This document shows positions 6,510 to 59,079 of a DNA stretch of 64,000 bases, in pieces. Source of the DNA: an uncultured Gammaproteobacteria bacterium. Lineage in GTDB: Bacteria; Patescibacteriota; Patescibacteriia; UBA9570. The stretch lies in the NCBI GenBank assembly GCA_964385285.1, contig CAYLOJ010000004.1, forward strand, positions 7,736-71,735, written 5' to 3'. Position numbers and translations under genes: made by a program. The stretch's first letter is position 1, and every line of letters starts with the position of its first letter. The notes below the pieces were generated by a model. It was not told where the DNA came from. It searched no databases and saw only the letters and a program-made list of their open reading frames with translations.

Positions 6510-7082
6510 TTAGTAGGTATCATCGAATTTAGCCCGATTAGCTCTGGAAGTTTTTTCGACTTCAGCAAAGAGACTTTTGCCTTTACTATCCATCATGCAA
6601 AAGACTGGAAAATTTTTGACTTCTAGTTCCCAGATGGCATCGGTCATGCCAAATTCGGTTTTATATACATTTACAACTTTAGTAATACAGTGAGCATAGT
6701 ACACCGCGGCTCCACCAATGGCTGCACAATAGATACCAATTCCTTTTAGGGCCTGACGTACACCTTCATCCATACCACCTTTTCCCATGATGGCGCGGAT
6801 ATTATATTTTTCAATCAGCTCTGGCGTAAAATGATTGAAGCGTGCACTCGTCGTGGGACCAGCAGCTAAAATTTTAATGGCGCCATCTGGAGCGGTCTCG
6901 TACATTGGACCACAATGGTACAACACTGCATGACGCATCGGTTTAAAATTGTTTTTTAATAACCAACGATGCGCTTTATCACGCGCGGTCATTACGCGCC
7001 CCGAAAAATACACCTCATCACCAGCACGCACCTTCTTGATGATGGCCTCGGTTGGTGGAGTAGTGAGATGTAAGATAGCCAT
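6510..7082 (-). CDS. Class I fumarate hydratase, beta (C-terminal domain) subunit
   Basis: The [23 protein letters not shown] and MGKGGM motifs are typical of the FumB/TtdB C-terminal domain. The start is chosen at the internal Met (MAILHL). Confidence 0.7.
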
Positions 7083-7096
7083 ATAGTAACAACCGA

Positions 7097-7978
7097 CTAT
7101 GGTAATAATAAAGTTGCACGACGCATACTCCAACAGCCAATCGACACCCCCACAAACCAAGAGGCGGGGTGCACATAGCGCGTCGTTAATTTCACGGCCA
7201 ACGCAGTTGTCTTTCCACCTACTCCCATCGGTCCGATATCGAGCGCATTAATTTTTTTCAATAAACGTTTTTCAATGGTCGCTAATTTAGGAATGGGATT
7301 ATGTCCGGTAATCGGTTGCAGATGACGATTTTTGGCACGATAACTTGATTCTTCCATATTGCCACAAACTGCTGCGCCAATAATATACGGTGGGCAACCA
7401 CGGCCTTGGGCTTTAATCACAGCGTCTACAATACATTTCTCAATTCCTTCTAAGTCTCGTTCTGCACCAATCGAACGATCTGGCAATTGATATTGACGTG
7501 AAACATTTTCAGAACCGCCGCCTTTTAATAGAAGTTGGATCTGGGACTGATCCTCAGTTTCCTTAAAATAGATAATGGGATAATTTCCAATCACCTTCCC
7601 TTGAATCACATCAAAAGCATTGGCGCGGAGCGGCACCTCCTTGGTCGCAATCGCGGTAGCCTCTTTGATGATTTTCTTTAAATCTAATTGCGTGTATTTT
7701 CCACTTTGATATTTTACATACAACAAAGGAATACCTGTATCTTGGCATAAGGGACGCGTCTCCGTTTCAGCCATTTCAATATTGGTCAGCATGGTTTTCA
7801 GGACATGCTTAGCGCGAGCGTTGGTTTCTTTGCGCAAACCAGATTTCAATCCGTCTACAACATCTTTAGGAAGATGAGTGACAGCCACGCGATACATCTC
7901 AACAATAGCAGCAATGAGTTCACGCCGCGATGGCTTGTTTCCAGCCAGCGTTAGAATATTTCCGTTGGTAGTAAGCAT
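7097..7978 (-). CDS. Class I fumarate hydratase, alpha (N-terminal domain) subunit
   Basis: CQDTGIPLLYVKYQ is the Fe-S hydro-lyase (FumA/TtdA) signature. The arrangement is two-subunit, archaeal-type. Confidence 0.75.
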   Translation of the reverse strand: MLTTNGNILTLAGNKPSRRELIAAIVEMYRVAVTHLPKDVVDGLKSGLRKETNARAKHVLKTMLTNIEMAETETRPLCQDTGIPLLYVKYQSGKYTQLDLKKIIKEATAIATKEVPLRANAFDVIQGKVIGNYPIIYFKETEDQSQIQLLLKGGGSENVSRQYQLPDRSIGAERDLEGIEKCIVDAVIKAQGRGCPPYIIGAAVCGNMEESSYRAKNRHLQPITGHNPIPKLATIEKRLLKKINALDIGPMGVGGKTTALAVKLTTRYVHPASWFVGVSIGCWSMRRATLLLP

Positions 7979-18537: not shown

Positions 18538-19854
18538 TTAGTCGAGTACGGCAATGTAATAAATGGTGTTGCTACAACTGCCTTCAATCCCAGAATTGGG
18601 TACACGCAATTTTAAATAGGTATCTTTAATGGCCGCAAAGACCTCGCTTGTTCTGGCTACTAATGCCAAATTTACATTCGTATCCGTGTTTGAGAGTGCT
18701 TGGTCCCCTACGCCATAGGTGAATCCATTCGTAAAGGATAGGTGAATATTACTGGTGGGTATGGTTCCACGTGTACAACTAATATCGCCACTGGCGGATT
18801 GAGTCGCATCAATATTACGATTACCCGTGTTCGTAAATGCGAGCGTCTGTTGAGGTGAATCAACGCCGAGCGTTAATGTGCCGTAATTCACAGAAGCACC
18901 GACATCTAAGGCTAACAAACTATTCATTTCAAACGCATCGCTAGAATTTGCAGTGGCCGTAGCATCATCAGTCACTTTGACAAAGTTAGTCCAATTCGTA
19001 GACGCACCTGGAGAACCGGCGTCCGTCGCATCGGCATAATATTGAATCGGAATGACTGCTTCATAATCAATCGTAGTATCAGCACCACCTGAACAATTAC
19101 TGAGTGTAAAGGCAACAGTATTGGTATCCAACTGATAACAATTATTATTATCGGCACTGCAACTTGTACCGCCCGCAACATCACTTTTATATGCCGTGAC
19201 TGCCCATTGCGTTTTTGCGTCAATCTGCGAACAGCCATCGGCATCGGTCGCTGTTCCTCTAATATATAAATTGGTAGTTGAACCATCCGTTAAATTGAAA
19301 GATCCTTGATCACTACCGCCACTCGTTGTCGTTGTGATTACAGAATCCACGGATGGTGTGGCATTCCCACTGCTGCTGGCCGTGGCGCAAATTTTATTCG
19401 TGTAGGCAGCGGCGTCTCCGATATGCGCATTTGTGGTGACCGCAGACATGGAAGCAATGGTTGTATCATACCCTGCACAATTGGTTGCTTGATAACCAAC
19501 TGAAACCGTACCGCTACTTACGGATAAGCAGGCATTATTTGCGTAATTCATTTGTGTTTTCTGCTCGACATGGGCATTCGTGACGTCCGACAATTTTGCA
19601 ATCGTATCATAGGTACCAGAACAAGATGTGCCTAATCCTGCTACACCAGAACAACAGACCAATTGACTGTAATTGGCTTGACTAGCTAATTCAGCATGCG
19701 CATTACTAGTACCTGCCATGCGCAATACTACTGTACCACTAGGGCAACTTGTACCTACTGTGCAAGATAACGTGCCGGCTAGTGCAACCGGTGCGATGCC
19801 GCAGACTGCAATAAGAACCATGCCAACAACAAGAGATCGGTATTTACCAGGCAT
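18538..19854 (-). CDS. Secreted/surface protein, family A (Cys-rich N-terminal extension with three [ST][ST]NAH repeats)
   Basis: Signal peptide MPGKYRSLVVGMVLIAVCGIAPVALA. CSADNNNCY, NWTNFVKVTDDATATAN and a C-terminal SGIEGSC block are homologous to 14515..15480. Confidence 0.55.
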   Translation of the reverse strand: MPGKYRSLVVGMVLIAVCGIAPVALAGTLSCTVGTSCPSGTVVLRMAGTSNAHAELASQANYSQLVCCSGVAGLGTSCSGTYDTIAKLSDVTNAHVEQKTQMNYANNACLSVSSGTVSVGYQATNCAGYDTTIASMSAVTTNAHIGDAAAYTNKICATASSSGNATPSVDSVITTTTSGGSDQGSFNLTDGSTTNLYIRGTATDADGCSQIDAKTQWAVTAYKSDVAGGTSCSADNNNCYQLDTNTVAFTLSNCSGGADTTIDYEAVIPIQYYADATDAGSPGASTNWTNFVKVTDDATATANSSDAFEMNSLLALDVGASVNYGTLTLGVDSPQQTLAFTNTGNRNIDATQSASGDISCTRGTIPTSNIHLSFTNGFTYGVGDQALSNTDTNVNLALVARTSEVFAAIKDTYLKLRVPNSGIEGSCSNTIYYIAVLD

Positions 19855-21175
19855 ATACGCGCACCTCTCCACGGCCACCAGCGCCACCATTGCCACCAGA
19901 TGTTGTGCCGCCACCGCCACCGCCGCCACCTGCACCTAACGCACCATCTCCTCCGATACTACCCGCGCTATCCGTATCTCCACCACCACCGCCGCCAGAA
20001 CCACCACAAGCACCTTTGTTACTGGCTGCACCATTACCACCAACTGCTGATGTGGCACCGCCAATACCGCCAATAGCACCACCACCAGAGGCATAACGAC
20101 CAGTAGTACTACCAGCTCCACCAGCTGTACCGGCGTTGGCTGTTGTTACACCACCACCAGCGCCACCACCAGGACATCCATACATCGATGATCCGCCAGT
20201 ACCGCCCGCTGCAGGTACAGCGGAGCTGCCTGCGCCACCGCCGCCACCCCACTCCGCACCAGCACCTGTTACTCCAATAGCTCCCTGTTGACCTTGACCA
20301 CCGAATGCAGCTGCAGCAGAAGCTCCTGGAGCACCGCCGGAAACTGCAGTCGTTCCTGTACCTGTTATACCTGCGCCAGCAGTACCGCCACCGCCGCCAC
20401 CAACTGAAATATTGGCTGCGATGCCGCCTTCACCGCCACCGCCACCGCCTGCAAAACACAAAGTGCCACCGAATGTCGAGTTTCCACCAGCGCCACCGGC
20501 TGTACCAGAAGCACTACTGCCACCGCCGCCGGCAGTTCCACCAACACCCACATTAACAGATTCTGTTGAACCAAGATCCGCTGCACTAAAGGTGCGTTCA
20601 GTCAGTGCGCCACCGCCGCCGCCGCCACCGCCAATACGTGCAGAGGCTGCCGCTCCACCGTTGCCGCCGCCACCGCCGCCACCGCCGCCAATACAGACTA
20701 CTTTTACAGTCGTAACCCCGGCTGGTTTATTCCAGGTGTTGGCGCCTGTTGCAGTAAAGATTTGGACATCTCCTATCTTTCCCCAAGTACCGTTTCCTTC
20801 CCAAAACGACCCGGCACCCGCATTCGTACCCCCGTTTAAATTATTTACTGATAGATCTCCTGTCACCCCATTTGCCAGATTCACTTGTGACCAGGCAGGA
20901 TTATTGCTACCACCGGTATTGGATAAATAACGGGTGGCGGTAGTATTTTTTGCCAAAGCAACAATGGTGTTCGCCGCGGAACCATATAAGAGATCTCCCT
21001 GAGCAATCGTATTTAAACCTGTACCGCCTTGCGATGGCGTGACCAAAACATCACCAACTTCCGACCACGTATGTCCAGGATTCGGAGCAGCTGCCATCGC
21101 AATTTTAATGACAGAGGTGGCAAGACAAATCAATAAAAAAACGGATAGGATTGGATTAAAATATTTGAGTCTCAT
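19844..21175 (-). CDS. Secreted glycine-rich protein: ~150-aa N-terminal globular domain followed by ~280 aa of poly-Gly/Ala/Thr/Ser tracts
   Basis: Signal peptide MRLKYFNPILSVFLLICLATSVIKIAMA. Runs of G8-G10. Very high local GC from GGN codons. Ends RGEVRVYAW. Confidence 0.55.
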   Translation of the reverse strand: MRLKYFNPILSVFLLICLATSVIKIAMAAAPNPGHTWSEVGDVLVTPSQGGTGLNTIAQGDLLYGSAANTIVALAKNTTATRYLSNTGGSNNPAWSQVNLANGVTGDLSVNNLNGGTNAGAGSFWEGNGTWGKIGDVQIFTATGANTWNKPAGVTTVKVVCIGGGGGGGGGNGGAAASARIGGGGGGGGALTERTFSAADLGSTESVNVGVGGTAGGGGSSASGTAGGAGGNSTFGGTLCFAGGGGGGEGGIAANISVGGGGGGTAGAGITGTGTTAVSGGAPGASAAAAFGGQGQQGAIGVTGAGAEWGGGGGAGSSAVPAAGGTGGSSMYGCPGGGAGGGVTTANAGTAGGAGSTTGRYASGGGAIGGIGGATSAVGGNGAASNKGACGGSGGGGGGDTDSAGSIGGDGALGAGGGGGGGGTTSGGNGGAGGRGEVRVYAW

Positions 21176-37996: not shown

Positions 37997-39035
37997 TTTT
38001 AAAAAAATTCAATCCGCTACTTTTTTTGGCGCACTCATCGGCATTACATTATTATTTTTGTGGATGCTGGCTCCCTATGTGTATCCAGTGTTCTGGGCTG
38101 CGGTATTAGCCGCAATGTTTCATCCGTTGTATTTACGCATCTACGGTCGCGTACAACGACCTAACGTAGCTGCTGGTTTGACTGAGCTCATTATTTTTTT
38201 GATCTTCCTCATCCCTATCACTGGTTTGATGACCCTGATTGTTCAACAAGCATTCTCTGTTTATCAGATGTTTGGCAATCAAGAGACCTTTACCTCTCTG
38301 ACGTTAGCAATACAAGAAATTGTGGCACATCCCTGGATTAAACAATTTATCGGTAGTGTCAATATTTCAGAACAGTTGTCCAACTTCACGAATGCCGCCT
38401 CCAGTTTTGCTTATGGCGTTGTTACGACTGGCGGTCAAAATACAGCTCGGTGGATTATCCAATTCTTTATCATGATGTATACACTGTTTTTCTTTTTGAA
38501 AGATGGTAAAAAATTCTTAAAACGTTTGATGCATTTATTACCGTTGGGTGATGAATATGAGGAGCGTCTCTATCAACGTTTTGTTTCTACCACCCGAGCT
38601 ACCCTGAAAGGAACGATTGTCATCGGTACTGTGCAGGGCACCATTGGTGGCATCGCACTATTAATTGCCGGTGTACCAGGAGCTATCTTTTGGGCAGTGA
38701 TTATGATTGTCTTTTGCATTATTCCTGGAGTTGGTGCCGCAATCGTGCTGGTACCTACGGCCATTATTCTGGCCATCACCGGTGCTTGGTGGCAGATGAT
38801 TGTGGTATTAGTAGCCTTGCTAATTGCCGGTACGATTGATAACTTCCTGCGCGGTCCGTTAGTAGGCAAGGATACTCAAATGCATCCTCTATTTATCTTC
38901 TTTTCCACCTTAGGAGGTTTATTGGCCTTCGGTATTTCTGGAGTCGTCATTGGTCCGGTCATCACTGCTTTCCTTATTAGCATTTGGGGAATGTATGAGG
39001 AGAAGTATCATGCAGATTTAGTGCGGGAAGGTTAA
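37983..39035 (+). CDS. AI-2E family transporter (PerM/UPF0118)
   Basis: ~8 TM, 350 aa, glycine-rich TM pattern typical of the family. Confidence 0.65.
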   Translation: MTATDFKKIQSATFFGALIGITLLFLWMLAPYVYPVFWAAVLAAMFHPLYLRIYGRVQRPNVAAGLTELIIFLIFLIPITGLMTLIVQQAFSVYQMFGNQETFTSLTLAIQEIVAHPWIKQFIGSVNISEQLSNFTNAASSFAYGVVTTGGQNTARWIIQFFIMMYTLFFFLKDGKKFLKRLMHLLPLGDEYEERLYQRFVSTTRATLKGTIVIGTVQGTIGGIALLIAGVPGAIFWAVIMIVFCIIPGVGAAIVLVPTAIILAITGAWWQMIVVLVALLIAGTIDNFLRGPLVGKDTQMHPLFIFFSTLGGLLAFGISGVVIGPVITAFLISIWGMYEEKYHADLVREG

Positions 39036-39075
39036 TGTATTACCTCTCACTCCATTCCTATTCTTAACATTCGAC

Positions 39076-39103
39076 ATCTCCCCTTTCCGGGGAGATTTGG
39101 TTT
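39076..39103 (+). terminator. Rho-independent terminator after the AI-2E transporter gene
   Basis: atctcccc-tttcc-ggggagat hairpin followed by TTGGTTT. Confidence 0.6.
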
Positions 39104-39140
39104 AGCAAAACAAAGCTCTCTGCAAGAGGTATATTCATAC

Positions 39141-39194
39141 GAAAAAGATGAACCCCCGAGACCGGCGATTCATCGCTGCAGTTCACGGGGGTTT
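39141..39194 (-). terminator. Candidate terminator downstream of the high-GC amidase gene (minus strand)
   Basis: aacccccg...cgggggtt 8-bp stem with a structured loop, followed on the minus strand by CTTTTTC. Confidence 0.4.
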
Positions 39195-39267
39195 GAAAAT
39201 GCGTTTAATCACATCATCCTCCTAGGTTGAATGGGGTGCGTGCTCCCCTTGTGATTGTTGTAGCTCG

Positions 39268-40212
39268 TCAGTAGCCGCAGTCCTGGCACCAGTCGACGTG
39301 GTCCTGGATGTCCGGAAGCTCGTCGTAGAGCTGATCACCCGGGCACTCGGTAGTGCCATAGTCGCGATGACCCTTGATCACCGTACTGTTGGTGATGCCA
39401 GCTTCGAACATCACCCGCGCCACCACCGCTTCGAGCGTCTGAAGCTCCGTGGCGGTCGGCGTGACGCTGGTGAAGTCGCCCACCAACGAAATACCGACGT
39501 AGCCGGTGTTGTAGCCACTCGTGTGTGCACCCACGCACCACATGCTCGAGAACGAGCCGGTGCTGGTACACATGCGACCCTCGTAGATGTGCAGGCCGGC
39601 TGCGTCCTCGCACACCATCATCTGGTAGCCGATGTCACCCCAACCGTGATCAGGGCCGAAGATGTGGTAGTTCGCCACCGCAGCAACATAGGCGTCGCAG
39701 TCCGTGGTGTCGGCGGCCGTGTGGTGAATCGTCACCGCAATCGGCGCGTGCTCGCTGGGCGGCCAGTCGAGACTATCCGAATACCAACCGTAGCCGTAGT
39801 CGGCGTTCAACTCATCCCCCACGTCATAGGACGTCGGGAAGTTCGACACGCTAGGCCAGGAAGGAATCGGCGGATAGTAGCCAGCGACGATCGCGTCCTC
39901 CACGTCTGCAGAGTTGCTCCAGTCGGTCACGCCACTGCTCTGCGTGATGAGGCTCGCGCCCCACACGCTGCGGTCGGTCGTCATCAGACCCTGCCCGCAC
40001 AGCGCGGCAGCATCTGCACACTCGTCCGGCGCAGTGTCGGTGTCCGTGTTGGTGTCGCCAGTGTCTCCGGAATCCGTGTTGGTGTCCTGCGAATCGGTGT
40101 GCGTGTCCGAGTCGGAATCACCCGAGTCGGTCGACACACCAGTGTCAGTGGGAAAGGGCTTCGTGCCCATGTCGTCCCCATTGTTGCAGGCGAACAGCAG
40201 AATGAACGTCAT
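39268..40212 (-). CDS. N-acetylmuramoyl-L-alanine amidase (PGRP / amidase_2 family), putative lipoprotein with an Asp/Thr-rich linker. Horizontally acquired (high GC).
   Basis: IAVTIHHTA, NYHIFGPDHGWGDIGYQ, GAHTSGYNTGYVGISLVGDF and GHRDYGTTECPG are amidase_2 signatures. The N-terminus MTFILLFAC has a lipobox-like LFAC. GC >60% versus ~45% background. GGAG SD. Confidence 0.8.
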   Translation of the reverse strand: MTFILLFACNNGDDMGTKPFPTDTGVSTDSGDSDSDTHTDSQDTNTDSGDTGDTNTDTDTAPDECADAAALCGQGLMTTDRSVWGASLITQSSGVTDWSNSADVEDAIVAGYYPPIPSWPSVSNFPTSYDVGDELNADYGYGWYSDSLDWPPSEHAPIAVTIHHTAADTTDCDAYVAAVANYHIFGPDHGWGDIGYQMMVCEDAAGLHIYEGRMCTSTGSFSSMWCVGAHTSGYNTGYVGISLVGDFTSVTPTATELQTLEAVVARVMFEAGITNSTVIKGHRDYGTTECPGDQLYDELPDIQDHVDWCQDCGY

Positions 40213-40305
40213 TACGATCTCCAGGGTGGATGTACTTTGCTGAGAGGCTGTTGAAGAATAACAAGCCTACGATGACTACACAAATTTAGGAGGATTCGTG
40301 ACAAA

Positions 40306-40360
40306 CCGAAGAAAAACCGAAGTTATCCACAGCCAAGCTTGACCTTCGGTTTTTATTCGG
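40306..40360. promoter_or_regulatory. Candidate LexA operator / lexA autoregulatory region: CCGAAG-N5-CCGAAG ...21 nt... CTTCGG-N5-ATTCGG
   Basis: Direct repeats at 40306 and 40317 (11-bp phasing). Inverted copies at 40344 and 40355 overlap a putative TTGACC(40339)-17-TAACGT(40362) promoter 6 nt before the lexA ATG. Confidence 0.3.
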
Positions 40361-40373
40361 TTAACGTAGATGC

Positions 40374-41021
40374 ATGACCGCACTCACAAAAAAGAAAAAA
40401 CAGATTCTAGACTTCATCGGAGAATTCCAACAAGCTAAAGGCTACTACCCTACTCTGGAAGAAATCCGCAAACAGTTTCACCTCAATAGTCTATCTACTG
40501 TCCATCAACATCTCTCTGAACTGCAAGATTTAGGAATGATCGAACGTAACTACGGCAAAGCCCGCGACATGAAAGTTGCGATGGAAAGTAAAGTTGGCGG
40601 TAAAAACATCTATAAGACCAGTGCCGAGCCTTATCAAGTGGGGGCCAGCGCTGAACTACATATTGCTGGTTTAATTACTGCTGGGTACCCAATTGAAGCA
40701 GTCGAAGACACTACTGAAACTCTTACAGTGCCCCGCCACATGATCGATAATAAAAACGCTTACGTCTTGAAAGTAAAAGGTGATTCCATGATTGAGAGTT
40801 TAATTGCGGATGGTGATTACGTTGTAGTGCAAAAACAGGACTATGCTAGTGATGGCGATATTGTAGTCGCTTTGCTCGAAGATGGTTCGGCCACTCTGAA
40901 AGAATTCCACCGAGAAAAAAACTATGTGCGCTTACAGCCGCGCAATCAGAACTATAAACCCATTAAAGTACGCAATGTCGTCATTCAGGGTCGCGTACTA
41001 GGAATCATTCGCAAATATTAA
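40374..41021 (+). CDS. lexA: LexA repressor (SOS regulator, S24 peptidase)
   Basis: N-terminal wHTH. C-terminal VKGDSMIES (Ser), TLKEF (Lys) and the Ala-Gly cleavage region HIAGLITAG. Confidence 0.85.
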   Translation: MTALTKKKKQILDFIGEFQQAKGYYPTLEEIRKQFHLNSLSTVHQHLSELQDLGMIERNYGKARDMKVAMESKVGGKNIYKTSAEPYQVGASAELHIAGLITAGYPIEAVEDTTETLTVPRHMIDNKNAYVLKVKGDSMIESLIADGDYVVVQKQDYASDGDIVVALLEDGSATLKEFHREKNYVRLQPRNQNYKPIKVRNVVIQGRVLGIIRKY

Positions 41022-41029
41022 ATTGAGTT

Positions 41030-41335
41030 ATGTCGTATTCTTCTACTAGTACAGTTCCAATTGAGATGTTACCTGGCATCGGCCGTCGCACTGCTAAAGT
41101 GTTGCGCTCCATGCACATCCGCACTGTTGGTCAATTCAAAACACTACCAGAAAAGATGTTGGTTGAGATCTTTGGACCAAGCATCCGCACACTTTACACT
41201 GCTGTCCATGGCATGGAATATGCTTCCGTAGCGACACGACCGAATGTACAACCCAATGTACGTACAGTAAAAGCAATTAAAAATCTAAGCTTCACAAAAA
41301 AATTCCGCTTGGCTACACAGGTGTTGATGATGTAA
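41030..41335 (+). CDS. 101-aa protein matching only the HhH/thumb region of Y-family DNA polymerases (DinB/ImuB-like). Probable gene remnant or stand-alone HhH protein.
   Basis: LPGIGRRTAKVLRSMHIRTVGQF...LVEIFGPSIRTLYTAVHG resembles the DinB (IPGVGK..KL...GI.T.GDL...L...FG) thumb. No palm or fingers are encoded, and only 9 nt separate it from the lexA stop. Confidence 0.4.
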   Translation: MSYSSTSTVPIEMLPGIGRRTAKVLRSMHIRTVGQFKTLPEKMLVEIFGPSIRTLYTAVHGMEYASVATRPNVQPNVRTVKAIKNLSFTKKFRLATQVLMM

Positions 41336-58736: not shown

Positions 58737-58772
58737 TTTTTGGTTGACAGACCACCACGAGATCATTAAGAT

Positions 58773-58982
58773 GTGCGCGCCAACACGGAGGTTCCATTGG
58801 CACGTCGACACTGTGCAAAGCACAACAAGTACTACCGGCATGAAAAGTGTCCTGACTGCTTCCCGGACGCAGGGAAGCCGCGAAAGGTCTACAAGACCCG
58901 GCAGGTGACCACCTGCCGCAGCTGCAAGTCCGGGGTGCCGGCCGGCAGCGGTCGCTGCACGTCCTGCGGGACGAAGCAGTAG
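58773..58982 (+). CDS. Small zinc-ribbon protein (two CxxC pairs x2) inside a high-GC insert. GTG start; uncertain.
   Basis: HCAKHNKYYRHEKCPDC and TCRSCKSG...GRCTSCG. Strong GC3 bias consistent with real coding in a high-GC donor. Confidence 0.4.
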   Translation: MRANTEVPLARRHCAKHNKYYRHEKCPDCFPDAGKPRKVYKTRQVTTCRSCKSGVPAGSGRCTSCGTKQ

Positions 58983-59079
58983 GAGGAGGGGGGCGGTTGA
59001 TCATTCCAGATCGGCCGCCCCAACCATTCATTATCCCCAGACTTGTCAACCTTTTAACCATGTGATATCGTCTACCCCT

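Follow-up and report, generated by a model that had tools for sequence, protein, structure and literature searches.

A gene of markedly GC-rich composition in a GC-poor genome raises the question of how it came to be there, and of whether the sharp compositional change at its start marks the place where foreign DNA was joined. The gene in question encodes a putative peptidoglycan amidase and resides next to lexA in a stretch of 64,000 nucleotides from contig CAYLOJ010000004.1 (positions 7,736 to 71,735; the window hereafter). According to a sequence-only reading of the stretch, the gene had been acquired with a transfer junction at the start codon, the acquisition appeared to have truncated its signal peptide, and the gene may be SOS-coupled and a relic of a prophage or of warfare-related horizontal transfer. 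Comparison with related loci leads to another answer. The best explanation as a whole, to which a probability of roughly 0.6 is assigned, is that the gene belongs to an amidase family hosted in a slot where genes are swapped, that this family has a GC-rich ancestry and circulates, and that the signal peptide of the window copy has been eroded in frame.

The compositional anomaly was confirmed, as was the resemblance of the codons to those of a GC-rich genome. The amidase open reading frame (ORF) has a GC content of 0.620 (0.556, 0.502 and 0.803 at first, second and third codon positions, GC1, GC2 and GC3 hereafter), against 0.446 for the whole window and GC3 values of 0.37-0.46 for the adjoining genes. 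Its GC3 lies >9 standard deviations from the window background (0.41 +/- 0.042, 52 non-overlapping long ORFs), and it is the sole such outlier in the 64 kb. GC-type codons are used throughout the gene: AAG in 100% of cases (the background uses AAA in 70%), GAC in 76% (background 16%), CTC and CTG for leucine, where the background uses TTA and TTG, and CCG is favoured too. A is found at only 3% of third positions. The amino acid composition is also shifted, GC2 being 0.50 and Lys accounting for 2 of 314 residues (0.6%). Genes for RNA polymerase subunits and ribosomal proteins in the window, presumed to be highly expressed, have GC3 ~0.40 and no preference for G/C-ending codons. In 100-nt windows GC is at least 0.59 from ~39250 to ~40199, 0.43 at 40200-40299, and 0.46-0.55 below 39250. 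The change is thus as abrupt as had been described for ~40255 and ~39235, but the 5' jump corresponds to the start codon (40212), not to 40255.

The ORF encodes a putative Zn-dependent N-acetylmuramoyl-L-alanine amidase of the Amidase_2/PGRP fold, assigned to a small lipoprotein family. The Amidase_2 identity, already recognized from the letters of the sequence, is backed by the Pfam profile PF01510, which matches residues 158-293 with 50.8 bits (cut-off 26, E 2.7e-13). An AlphaFold2 model built from a 10-sequence alignment (predicted local distance difference test score, pLDDT, 57; predicted template modelling score, pTM, 0.62) was of insufficient quality for searching by fold or for inspecting the active site, and sequence-profile matching to PDB was used in its place; the top solved structures for the family profile are PGRP domains (E 2e-20). 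Amidase motifs were found at residues 81-86 (RxxWGA), 163-166 (HHTA) and 281-292 (GHRD...TECPG). Residues H163, H164, H282 and C290 are unchanged in 10 of 10 aligned amidases, the window copy included; their motifs align to IHHSAG and GHRDVGSTACPG of a PGRP and, from established knowledge of the fold, are taken by us to provide the Zn ligands. In the same alignment every family-invariant residue (>70) is kept in the window protein outside its shortened N-terminus, and comparison with the relative locus L001 denotes purifying selection (nonsynonymous divergence, dN, 0.21; synonymous divergence, dS, 1.11; dN/dS ~0.19).

The Pfam match and the RxxWGA, HHTA and GHRD...TxCPG motifs are shared with known Amidase_2 enzymes, such as T7 lysozyme, AmpD and animal PGRPs. 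Among amidases of this kind E. coli AmiD is a lipoprotein-anchored example, and its lipoprotein signal peptide is like that of the relatives of the window amidase. The window family differs from the known enzymes because it features an insertion of ~65 residues between the RxxWGA strand and HHTA, the long acidic D/T-rich linker noticed earlier (residues ~20-60), and conserved Cys pairs (ECxxxxxxCG near the N-terminus, CQxCG at the C-terminus). Unlike lipoprotein-anchored amidases, the window copy has no rule-conforming signal peptide. A normal family member would be exported by the Sec route and lipidated at the lipobox Cys, would be tethered to the membrane by the acidic linker of ~50 residues, and would cleave the MurNAc-L-Ala bond of peptidoglycan, in its own wall or in that of a partner cell.

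The amidase gene is divergent to lexA (40374-41021), as stated before, and the neighbours of the locus are asparaginase, AI-2E transporter, lexA, RNase H-like, PD-(D/E)XK and LCP genes. Between the AI-2E and lexA genes lies a variable segment, or islet, which extends 91 nt upstream of the amidase ATG and 232 nt past its stop codon, and has the amidase as sole cargo. Slot contexts in other genomes (loci numbered with the prefix L) were fetched after a search with the window LexA. The slot is empty in L190/L191, in which LexA is 89-90% identical, as in L194/L195; in these the distal arm of the lexA operator, AACCGAAcAAAAACCGAAG, immediately follows the AI-2E stop codon, and the presence/absence pattern that the sequence-only reading proposed to look for in neighbouring genomes does exist. 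L192/L193 (LexA 87% identical) host a third type of amidase, with a normal signal peptide and a GC3 of 0.83. In L212 (LexA 81% identical) the position of the amidase next to the lexA operator (7300-7960) is filled by an unrelated DUF559 gene, encoding a Vsr-like endonuclease, with a GC content of 0.34. In L002 and L006 the amidase gene is followed by a second lipoprotein gene, and L003 and L189 carry an extra operon of ~8 kb (L003 11306-19443; L189 988-5636), with GC3 of 0.26-0.38, below that of the host.

Order of flanking genes is maintained around this changing content. Sequence JACQPW010000076.1 (Candidatus Kerfeldbacteria, L002/L005) matches the window in the succession LCP, PD-(D/E)XK, RNase H-like, small IMS_HHH ORF, lexA, divergent amidase, ..., AI-2E, asparaginase; the order is the same in L003, is matched by L192/L193, and is found in part in L006 and L076. 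Amidases were sorted into types A (window, L001, L076), B (L002, L003, L004, L006, L077) and C (L192, L193), which are 48-55% identical. Flanking proteins of the window and L192 are 78-89% identical, their amidases 48%. The AI-2E/lexA slot is a hotspot of insertion and deletion in Kerfeldbacteria-like relatives. Family members also reside elsewhere, next to a PIN gene in L001, an M23 peptidase gene in L004, and a tyrosine recombinase gene in L077. In the latter the amidase gene (546-1502, GC3 ~0.91) is divergent to a gene encoding a 318-aa tyrosine recombinase (Phage_integrase), the only mobility-type gene found beside any family member.

Other residents of the slot were analyzed as well. The second lipoprotein gene, called lipo2, encodes proteins of 176-178 aa starting with MRTLTILAAFGLFINLIGC; it is found in L002 (6433-6960), L006 (1191-1724) and L189 (236-763), and is absent from the window. 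It has GC3 of 0.91-0.94, its own TTGACA/TACAAT promoter and a conserved 5' untranslated region (UTR) of ~100 nt, and just two relatives were found among 5.8 billion proteins. The L003/L189 block includes hypothetical genes of 266, ~1000, 64, 206, 352, 208 and 474 aa. The DUF559 gene of L212 is bracketed by repeated palindromes (CCTCTCCTTCTGAAGGAGAGG) akin to repetitive extragenic palindromes, and similar CT-rich palindromes mark the spacers of L002, L006 and L189.

The 5' end of the gene speaks on the supposed junction. As previously reported, the protein starts with MTFILLFAC, an in-frame TAG is located at 40267-40269, and no ATG, GTG or TTG separates it from the ATG. An alternative upstream start and a frameshifted N-terminus were ruled out, none being available in any frame. 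The signal peptides of relatives are short though normal (typically MRY-LLFxLxxLLxxC, Cys at position 13-18), and in all but L004 Arg or Lys is found in the first seven residues, usually in second position. In the window N-terminus the Cys is at position 9, and K/R are lacking. This N-terminus fails both the G+LPPv2 pattern and the PROSITE rule PS51257, which requires K/R among residues 1-7, an h-region free of charges, a lipobox, and a Cys between positions 15 and 35. By such rule-based criteria it would not be a lipoprotein signal peptide, and the shortening probably cripples export.

This shortening does not result from a junction. The GGAG ribosome-binding site, the ATG and ~35 nt of the 5'UTR are homologous across all loci, the PIN-adjacent L001 included, and the operator module is common to all lexA-adjacent loci. 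The L076 gene starts as ATG AGG TAC TAC CTG TTC CTT CTC GCC CTG CTG TTC GGC TGC, that of the window as ATG ACG TTC ATT CTG CTG TTC GCC TGC; ATGAGGTACTACCTGTTCCTTCTCGCC|CTGCTGTTCGGCTGC of relatives correspond to ATGACGTTCATT|CTGCTGTTCGCCTGC of the window, as the result of internal in-frame deletions and of an AGG to ACG change (R2T). The window signal peptide is shorter by 5 codons than that of L076, and by 7 than that of L001. Because the shortening is made by in-frame loss plus R2T, the start codon is no junction and the signal peptide has been eroded internally; an abrupt change of GC at a start codon cannot be taken as evidence of a junction. Since the family-invariant residues are kept, with the dN and dS values given above, any loss of function must be recent. 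In the proposed course of events 5-7 codons would have been lost in frame inside the signal peptide, with the Arg to Thr change, and the window copy may be heading for the loss already seen in sister lineages.

High GC3 is a trait of the family rather than of the window copy. Homologues have GC3 values of 0.77 (L001, L006), 0.80 (L002), 0.835 (L003), ~0.70 (L004), 0.86 (L076), ~0.91 (L077) and 0.83 (L192), while the flanks measure 0.43-0.47 GC throughout. Only nine proteins >43% identical to the window amidase were found in a word-indexed search of 5.8 billion proteins, and only six 50%-identity clusters at E<=1e-30 in an exhaustive search of 1.84 billion representatives. As far as sampled, the close family appears confined to a Kerfeldbacteria-like clade of the candidate phyla radiation (CPR); more distant relatives of same architecture, with native composition, are found in other CPR lineages. 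The nearest non-CPR amidase domains are from Actinomycetota and Chloroflexota. A literature search on horizontal transfer of CPR amidases returned nothing relevant. GC-rich ORFs are not limited to the amidase family, because a 235-aa multi-pass membrane protein of L004 (12608-13315), with a weak match to CDP-alcohol phosphatidyltransferases, is encoded by another GC3 outlier (0.81).

Two of the possible accounts fit these data poorly. A recent one-off insertion in the window genome, the account given by the sequence-only reading, would agree with the sharp GC change at the start codon, with a very short N-terminus devoid of basic residues, and with presence/absence among relatives. It is nonetheless very improbable: relatives having a full signal peptide share homologous ribosome-binding site, ATG and 5'UTR sequences, the islet ends at 39036 and 40303 rather than at the ATG, the operator repeats are those of lexA and do not change where the site is empty, and at least five other lineages have this GC-rich family in the same slot, homologues in this and other slots sharing GC3 of 0.70-0.91. 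An amidase with a normal signal peptide at the same place, a situation considered at the outset to speak against the insertion, was found in L002, L003, L076 and L192/L193, though not in all relatives. A prophage origin has to be abandoned along with the junction, as no phage genes reside nearby, close viral relatives are lacking, and the best match in viral contigs is 33% identical and covers the catalytic domain only. What survives of the transfer and warfare idea is the notion of a horizontally mobile, possibly conflict-related cargo. Even less credit is given to an artefact, either a chimeric assembly or contamination, or an antisense ORF being the real gene. The window does come from a metagenome-type genome, and the public protein set has the antisense ORF in place of the amidase; but independent assemblies of different samples, from NCBI, JGI, ENA and Logan data, show the same arrangement, a Pfam domain and the conservation described are found in the sense ORF, and the antisense frame is open merely because TTA, CTA and TCA codons are absent from the amidase.

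The remaining alternative concerns the origin of GC-rich codons. In the account that we favour, GC-rich codon usage would be a heritable, ORF-confined trait travelling with the gene, most likely derived from ancestry in a GC-rich genome and followed by circulation, replacement and loss among CPR genomes via the hotspot; it would not have been made by an insertion event in the window genome. Several observations weigh against it. No close-family member is found in a GC-rich context, all of the ~12 loci having low-GC flanks. In the two large protein searches the full architecture was seen only in CPR-type relatives, scans of JGI metagenomes and of viruses returned only distant amidase domains, and a homologue from Peribacteria, complete with lipoprotein signal peptide, linker, amidase domain and C-terminal Cys motif, has native GC. 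Integrase, att site or direct repeats marking the islet ends were not found. The 370-410-nt spacer between amidase and lipo2 in L002 and L006 has a native GC content of 0.46-0.48 and a native-type TTGACA...TACAAT promoter. Synonymous sites of flanking genes retain 2-13% of signal, a value near the amino-acid-specific null even for the window versus L192; since neutral sites are about randomised, a gene ameliorating passively in the slot from the time of lineage separation would be expected close to GC3 0.41-0.5, and a GC3 of 0.8 should have been erased. In lipo2, S>S changes (10; S, G or C; W, A or T) exceed S>W changes (5), pointing to constraint.

The lack of a relative in a GC-rich context, the native GC of the Peribacteria homologue and the lipo2 counts also speak for a rival account, in which the family would be native to the CPR clade, and its GC-rich codons would be held in situ by gene-specific selection, for instance to throttle the translation of a dangerous wall hydrolase or limit it to certain conditions, or for mRNA stability or structure. 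GC enrichment is confined to the ORFs, spacers and UTRs being native, and members keep GC3 of 0.70-0.94 in every sampled lineage despite saturated flanks. In one and the same genome pair, dS amounts to 0.56 for the amidase, roughly half the value of 1.06 for the AI-2E gene next to it. In a three-taxon likelihood analysis a stationary GC-rich model was preferred over neutral amelioration, but to an extent matched by a control gene. Such selection is nevertheless unlikely in our judgement. In the L002/L006 pair, polarised by L003, synonymous S>W and W>S changes of the amidase are 30:7, where a stationary simulation predicts 18:9 (P ~0.005) and the AI-2E flank, used as control, gives 19:26. The GC3 spread of 0.70-0.91 among amidases fits different stages of decay, amino acid composition is shifted along with codons, and the RNA polymerase and ribosomal protein genes show no G/C-ending preference. 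The slot demonstrably accepts foreign cargo, and its other residents are atypical too, as the L003 operon and the L212 DUF559 gene. We know of no established example in which selection keeps a single gene ~40 points higher in GC3 than its genome. That synonymous-codon selection has kept amidase and lipo2 at GC3 0.8-0.94 in genomes of ~0.41-0.48 GC3, for the time taken by neutral sites to saturate, is regarded as doubtful. If true, hotspot-borne surface proteins would have a private codon regime, throttling or timing hydrolase translation for example, and their composition would be no footprint of transfer. Foreign ancestry with continuing circulation has the edge over selection in situ, and leaves the persistence of GC-rich codons unexplained: GC3 values of 0.8-0.9 last in ORFs only, across saturated lineages, with no visible donor.

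The model of Lawrence and Ochman reportedly describes the compositional signature of horizontal transfer with amelioration. The amidase conforms to it in having GC3 and codon usage far from those of the host, and in the net loss of G/C-ending codons in one polarisable pair; it departs from it because the anomaly is family-wide across saturated lineages, is ORF-confined, and has no visible donor. Two further causes were considered and rejected. Biased gene conversion at a recombination hotspot does not hold as main cause, the adjacent AI-2E and lexA ends and the inter-ORF spacers being normal in GC. An overlapping antisense gene does not explain the avoidance of A in third position, as the antisense frame complements the amidase codon by codon, and opens automatically when TTA, CTA and TCA are absent.

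Small genomic islets at recombination or integration hotspots between conserved core genes are a general concept, and the locus resembles them in having fixed core flanks (AI-2E, lexA) and a slot that, in otherwise syntenic relatives, either is empty or hosts cargo of atypical composition, unrelated or highly divergent. The locus shows the atypical composition, and the presence/absence among close relatives with intact flanks, that are expected of a recently acquired island; an identifiable donor or mobility machinery were not found, nor were signs of recency, same-slot orthologues or xenologues being equally high in GC3 and the flanks synonymous-saturated. The slot differs from typical islets also because it lacks integrase, tRNA, att repeats and transposase, has a stop codon and an operator arm as boundaries, and hosts one GC-rich gene family in three divergent types. 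No mobility genes reside at 37-43 kb of the window. The window amidase is a new addition to the Amidase_2/PGRP family, among those tethered as lipoproteins, and its gene is carried by a small islet in a hotspot between core genes of a Kerfeldbacteria-like CPR genome. CPR bacteria presumably live in attachment to other cells. A peptidoglycan amidase that evolves fast, can be swapped at a hotspot and is tethered to the membrane is plausible as an interface, or arms-race, gene; its three types are far less conserved (48-55% identity) than the flanks.

The amidase is matched on the opposite strand by a long codon-aligned shadow ORF, which is the gene called in public annotation. The public protein collection includes, for the source contig of 90,465 bp at NCBI, this antisense ORF and both neighbours, and no form of the amidase ORF. 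The gene caller mistook the GC-rich shadow frame for the coding one. A conserved cell-wall amidase is effectively unannotated for this contig, and GC-rich cargo in low-GC CPR genomes is liable to systematic mis-calling.

Features of the amidase locus (positions refer to the window unless a relative locus is named)
Feature	Position	Strand	Remarks
Variable segment (islet), 1,268 bp, GC 0.58	39036..40303		From AI-2E stop codon to distal arm of lexA operator; absent in empty-site relatives
Amidase gene, 314 aa	39268..40212	-	Residual lipobox N-terminus, D/T linker, Amidase_2/PGRP domain, GC3 0.80
Shortened signal-peptide coding stretch, 9 codons to lipobox Cys	40186..40212	-	DNA and protein comparison with L076, L001, L002, L003
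GGAG ribosome-binding site, 6 nt upstream of ATG	40219..40222	-	Position homologous to the GGAG of relatives
Candidate weak amidase promoter, TTGTGT-17-TATTCT	40255..40283	-	By-eye alignment of upstream regions
lexA regulatory module, outside the islet	40304..40373	+	Conserved in all relatives, empty-site ones included
Antisense shadow ORF, 318 aa, codon-aligned to amidase	39298..40254	+	Public gene call for source contig
Mini-ORF with AGGAGG Shine-Dalgarno	39183..39223	-	ORF itself 39183-39212; conserved at islet end in relatives
Intrinsic terminator, AACCCCCG...CGGGGGTT then T-run	39142..39193	-	Conserved in relatives
Mini-ORF/terminator element	39142-39223	-	L001 2300-2374; L002 6985-7060; L003 11105-11185; L006 1748-1825; L189 785-865; L192 ~6690-6770
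Terminator-like hairpin for convergent AI-2E transporter gene	39076..39096	+	Inside the variable segment

In the lexA control region the direct repeat TTCGGTT-N4-TTCGGTT (period of 11 bp) is present twice, in inverted orientation, around TTATCCACA, a perfect DnaA-box-like sequence, and the -35 box. Its parts are, in order, AACCGAAGAAAAACCGAA (distal arm), TTATCCACA, CTTGACC (-35), TTCGGTTTTTATTCGGTT (proximal arm, in the spacer) and TAACGT (-10). In the window, as in each relative locus, exact copies of the repeat are found nowhere but in the module, which is invariant in all 11 relative loci. Because it is present unchanged in empty-site genomes, the module is lexA's own control region, and neither a terminator nor a part of the islet. 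Of the terminators placed by the sequence-only reading at both sides of the amidase, the downstream one is therefore retained, whereas the upstream one (40304-40362) corresponds to the lexA promoter repeats. The repeats are a candidate LexA box of this CPR clade. The -10 box ends 6 nt before the lexA ATG, suggesting that the lexA mRNA may be leaderless or nearly so.

The repeats flank and overlap the lexA promoter, and the distal arm ends ~20 nt upstream of the weak putative -35 of the amidase. The candidate amidase -10 would lie, by by-eye alignment, at the position of TATACAAT/TATAAAAT in L076/L003; the candidate promoter was not called in a consensus promoter scan. SOS control of the amidase, as proposed earlier, may be possible but is unsupported. 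Just downstream of lexA lies an ORF of 101 aa (41030-41335, + strand) with a match of 27.8 bits to IMS_HHH_1, limited to the thumb/HhH part of Y-family polymerases. It is kept in relatives at 78-125 aa, either as a stand-alone fragment or as a small SOS-linked protein.

GC-rich cargo is always closed by an element made by a mini-ORF and an intrinsic terminator. The mini-ORF reads GTG ATT AAA CGC ATT TTC AAA CCC CCG TGA, i.e. (M)IKRIFKPP*, and the C-terminus (I/V)FKPP* is kept in seven loci with synonymous changes and a codon indel, a coding-like pattern. The last codons and the stop codon fall in the 5' arm of the terminator, which folds with -31.2 kcal/mol in RNAalifold and -31.8 kcal/mol (z -3.2) as a single sequence, and has no Rfam family. 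In L003 and L189 a promoter and the further operon are found 3' of the element. This organization suggests a Pro-Pro-stop, translation-sensitive terminator. Attenuators of the mgtL/mgtP type are examples of proline-codon leaders. In proline-codon leader peptides ribosome pausing is coupled to an intrinsic terminator, with the involvement of EF-P and transcription-translation coupling (PMC5021804). The window mini-ORF is similarly short, preceded by a Shine-Dalgarno sequence and terminated by Pro-Pro-stop, with its last codons in the 5' arm of the hairpin. It differs from the leaders because it closes the islet on the 3' side, instead of being part of a 5' leader, and because the gene whose 3' end it faces in the window is convergent. 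The element was also sought in viral contigs; 16 hits to its 15-mer were all chance matches, not accompanied by the rest of the element.

In the 38950-40450 interval nothing was found in Rfam at E<=1, nothing reached the gathering threshold in the 64-kb window, and no tRNA or tmRNA gene was identified by ARAGORN in the latter. Two more GC-rich patches mark the window. One corresponds to an ORF at 19844-21175 (- strand), encoding a 443-aa protein largely made by Gly/Ala/Ser runs (GC 0.56, high GC1, GC2 0.70, GC3 0.35); this patch has another cause than that of the amidase, namely a Gly-rich ORF. It adjoins an ORF at 18538-19935 (- strand) for a Cys/Thr/Ser-rich protein of 465 aa, and both products are probably surface or pilus-like proteins. 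The other patch, ~320 nt of GC ~0.55-0.6 at 58740-59060, lies between a cytidylyltransferase-like gene and rpsT, and has neither a clear gene nor an Rfam match; it includes an ORF of 69 aa (58773-58982, + strand) with a CxxC...CxxC pattern, possibly encoding a zinc-ribbon protein.

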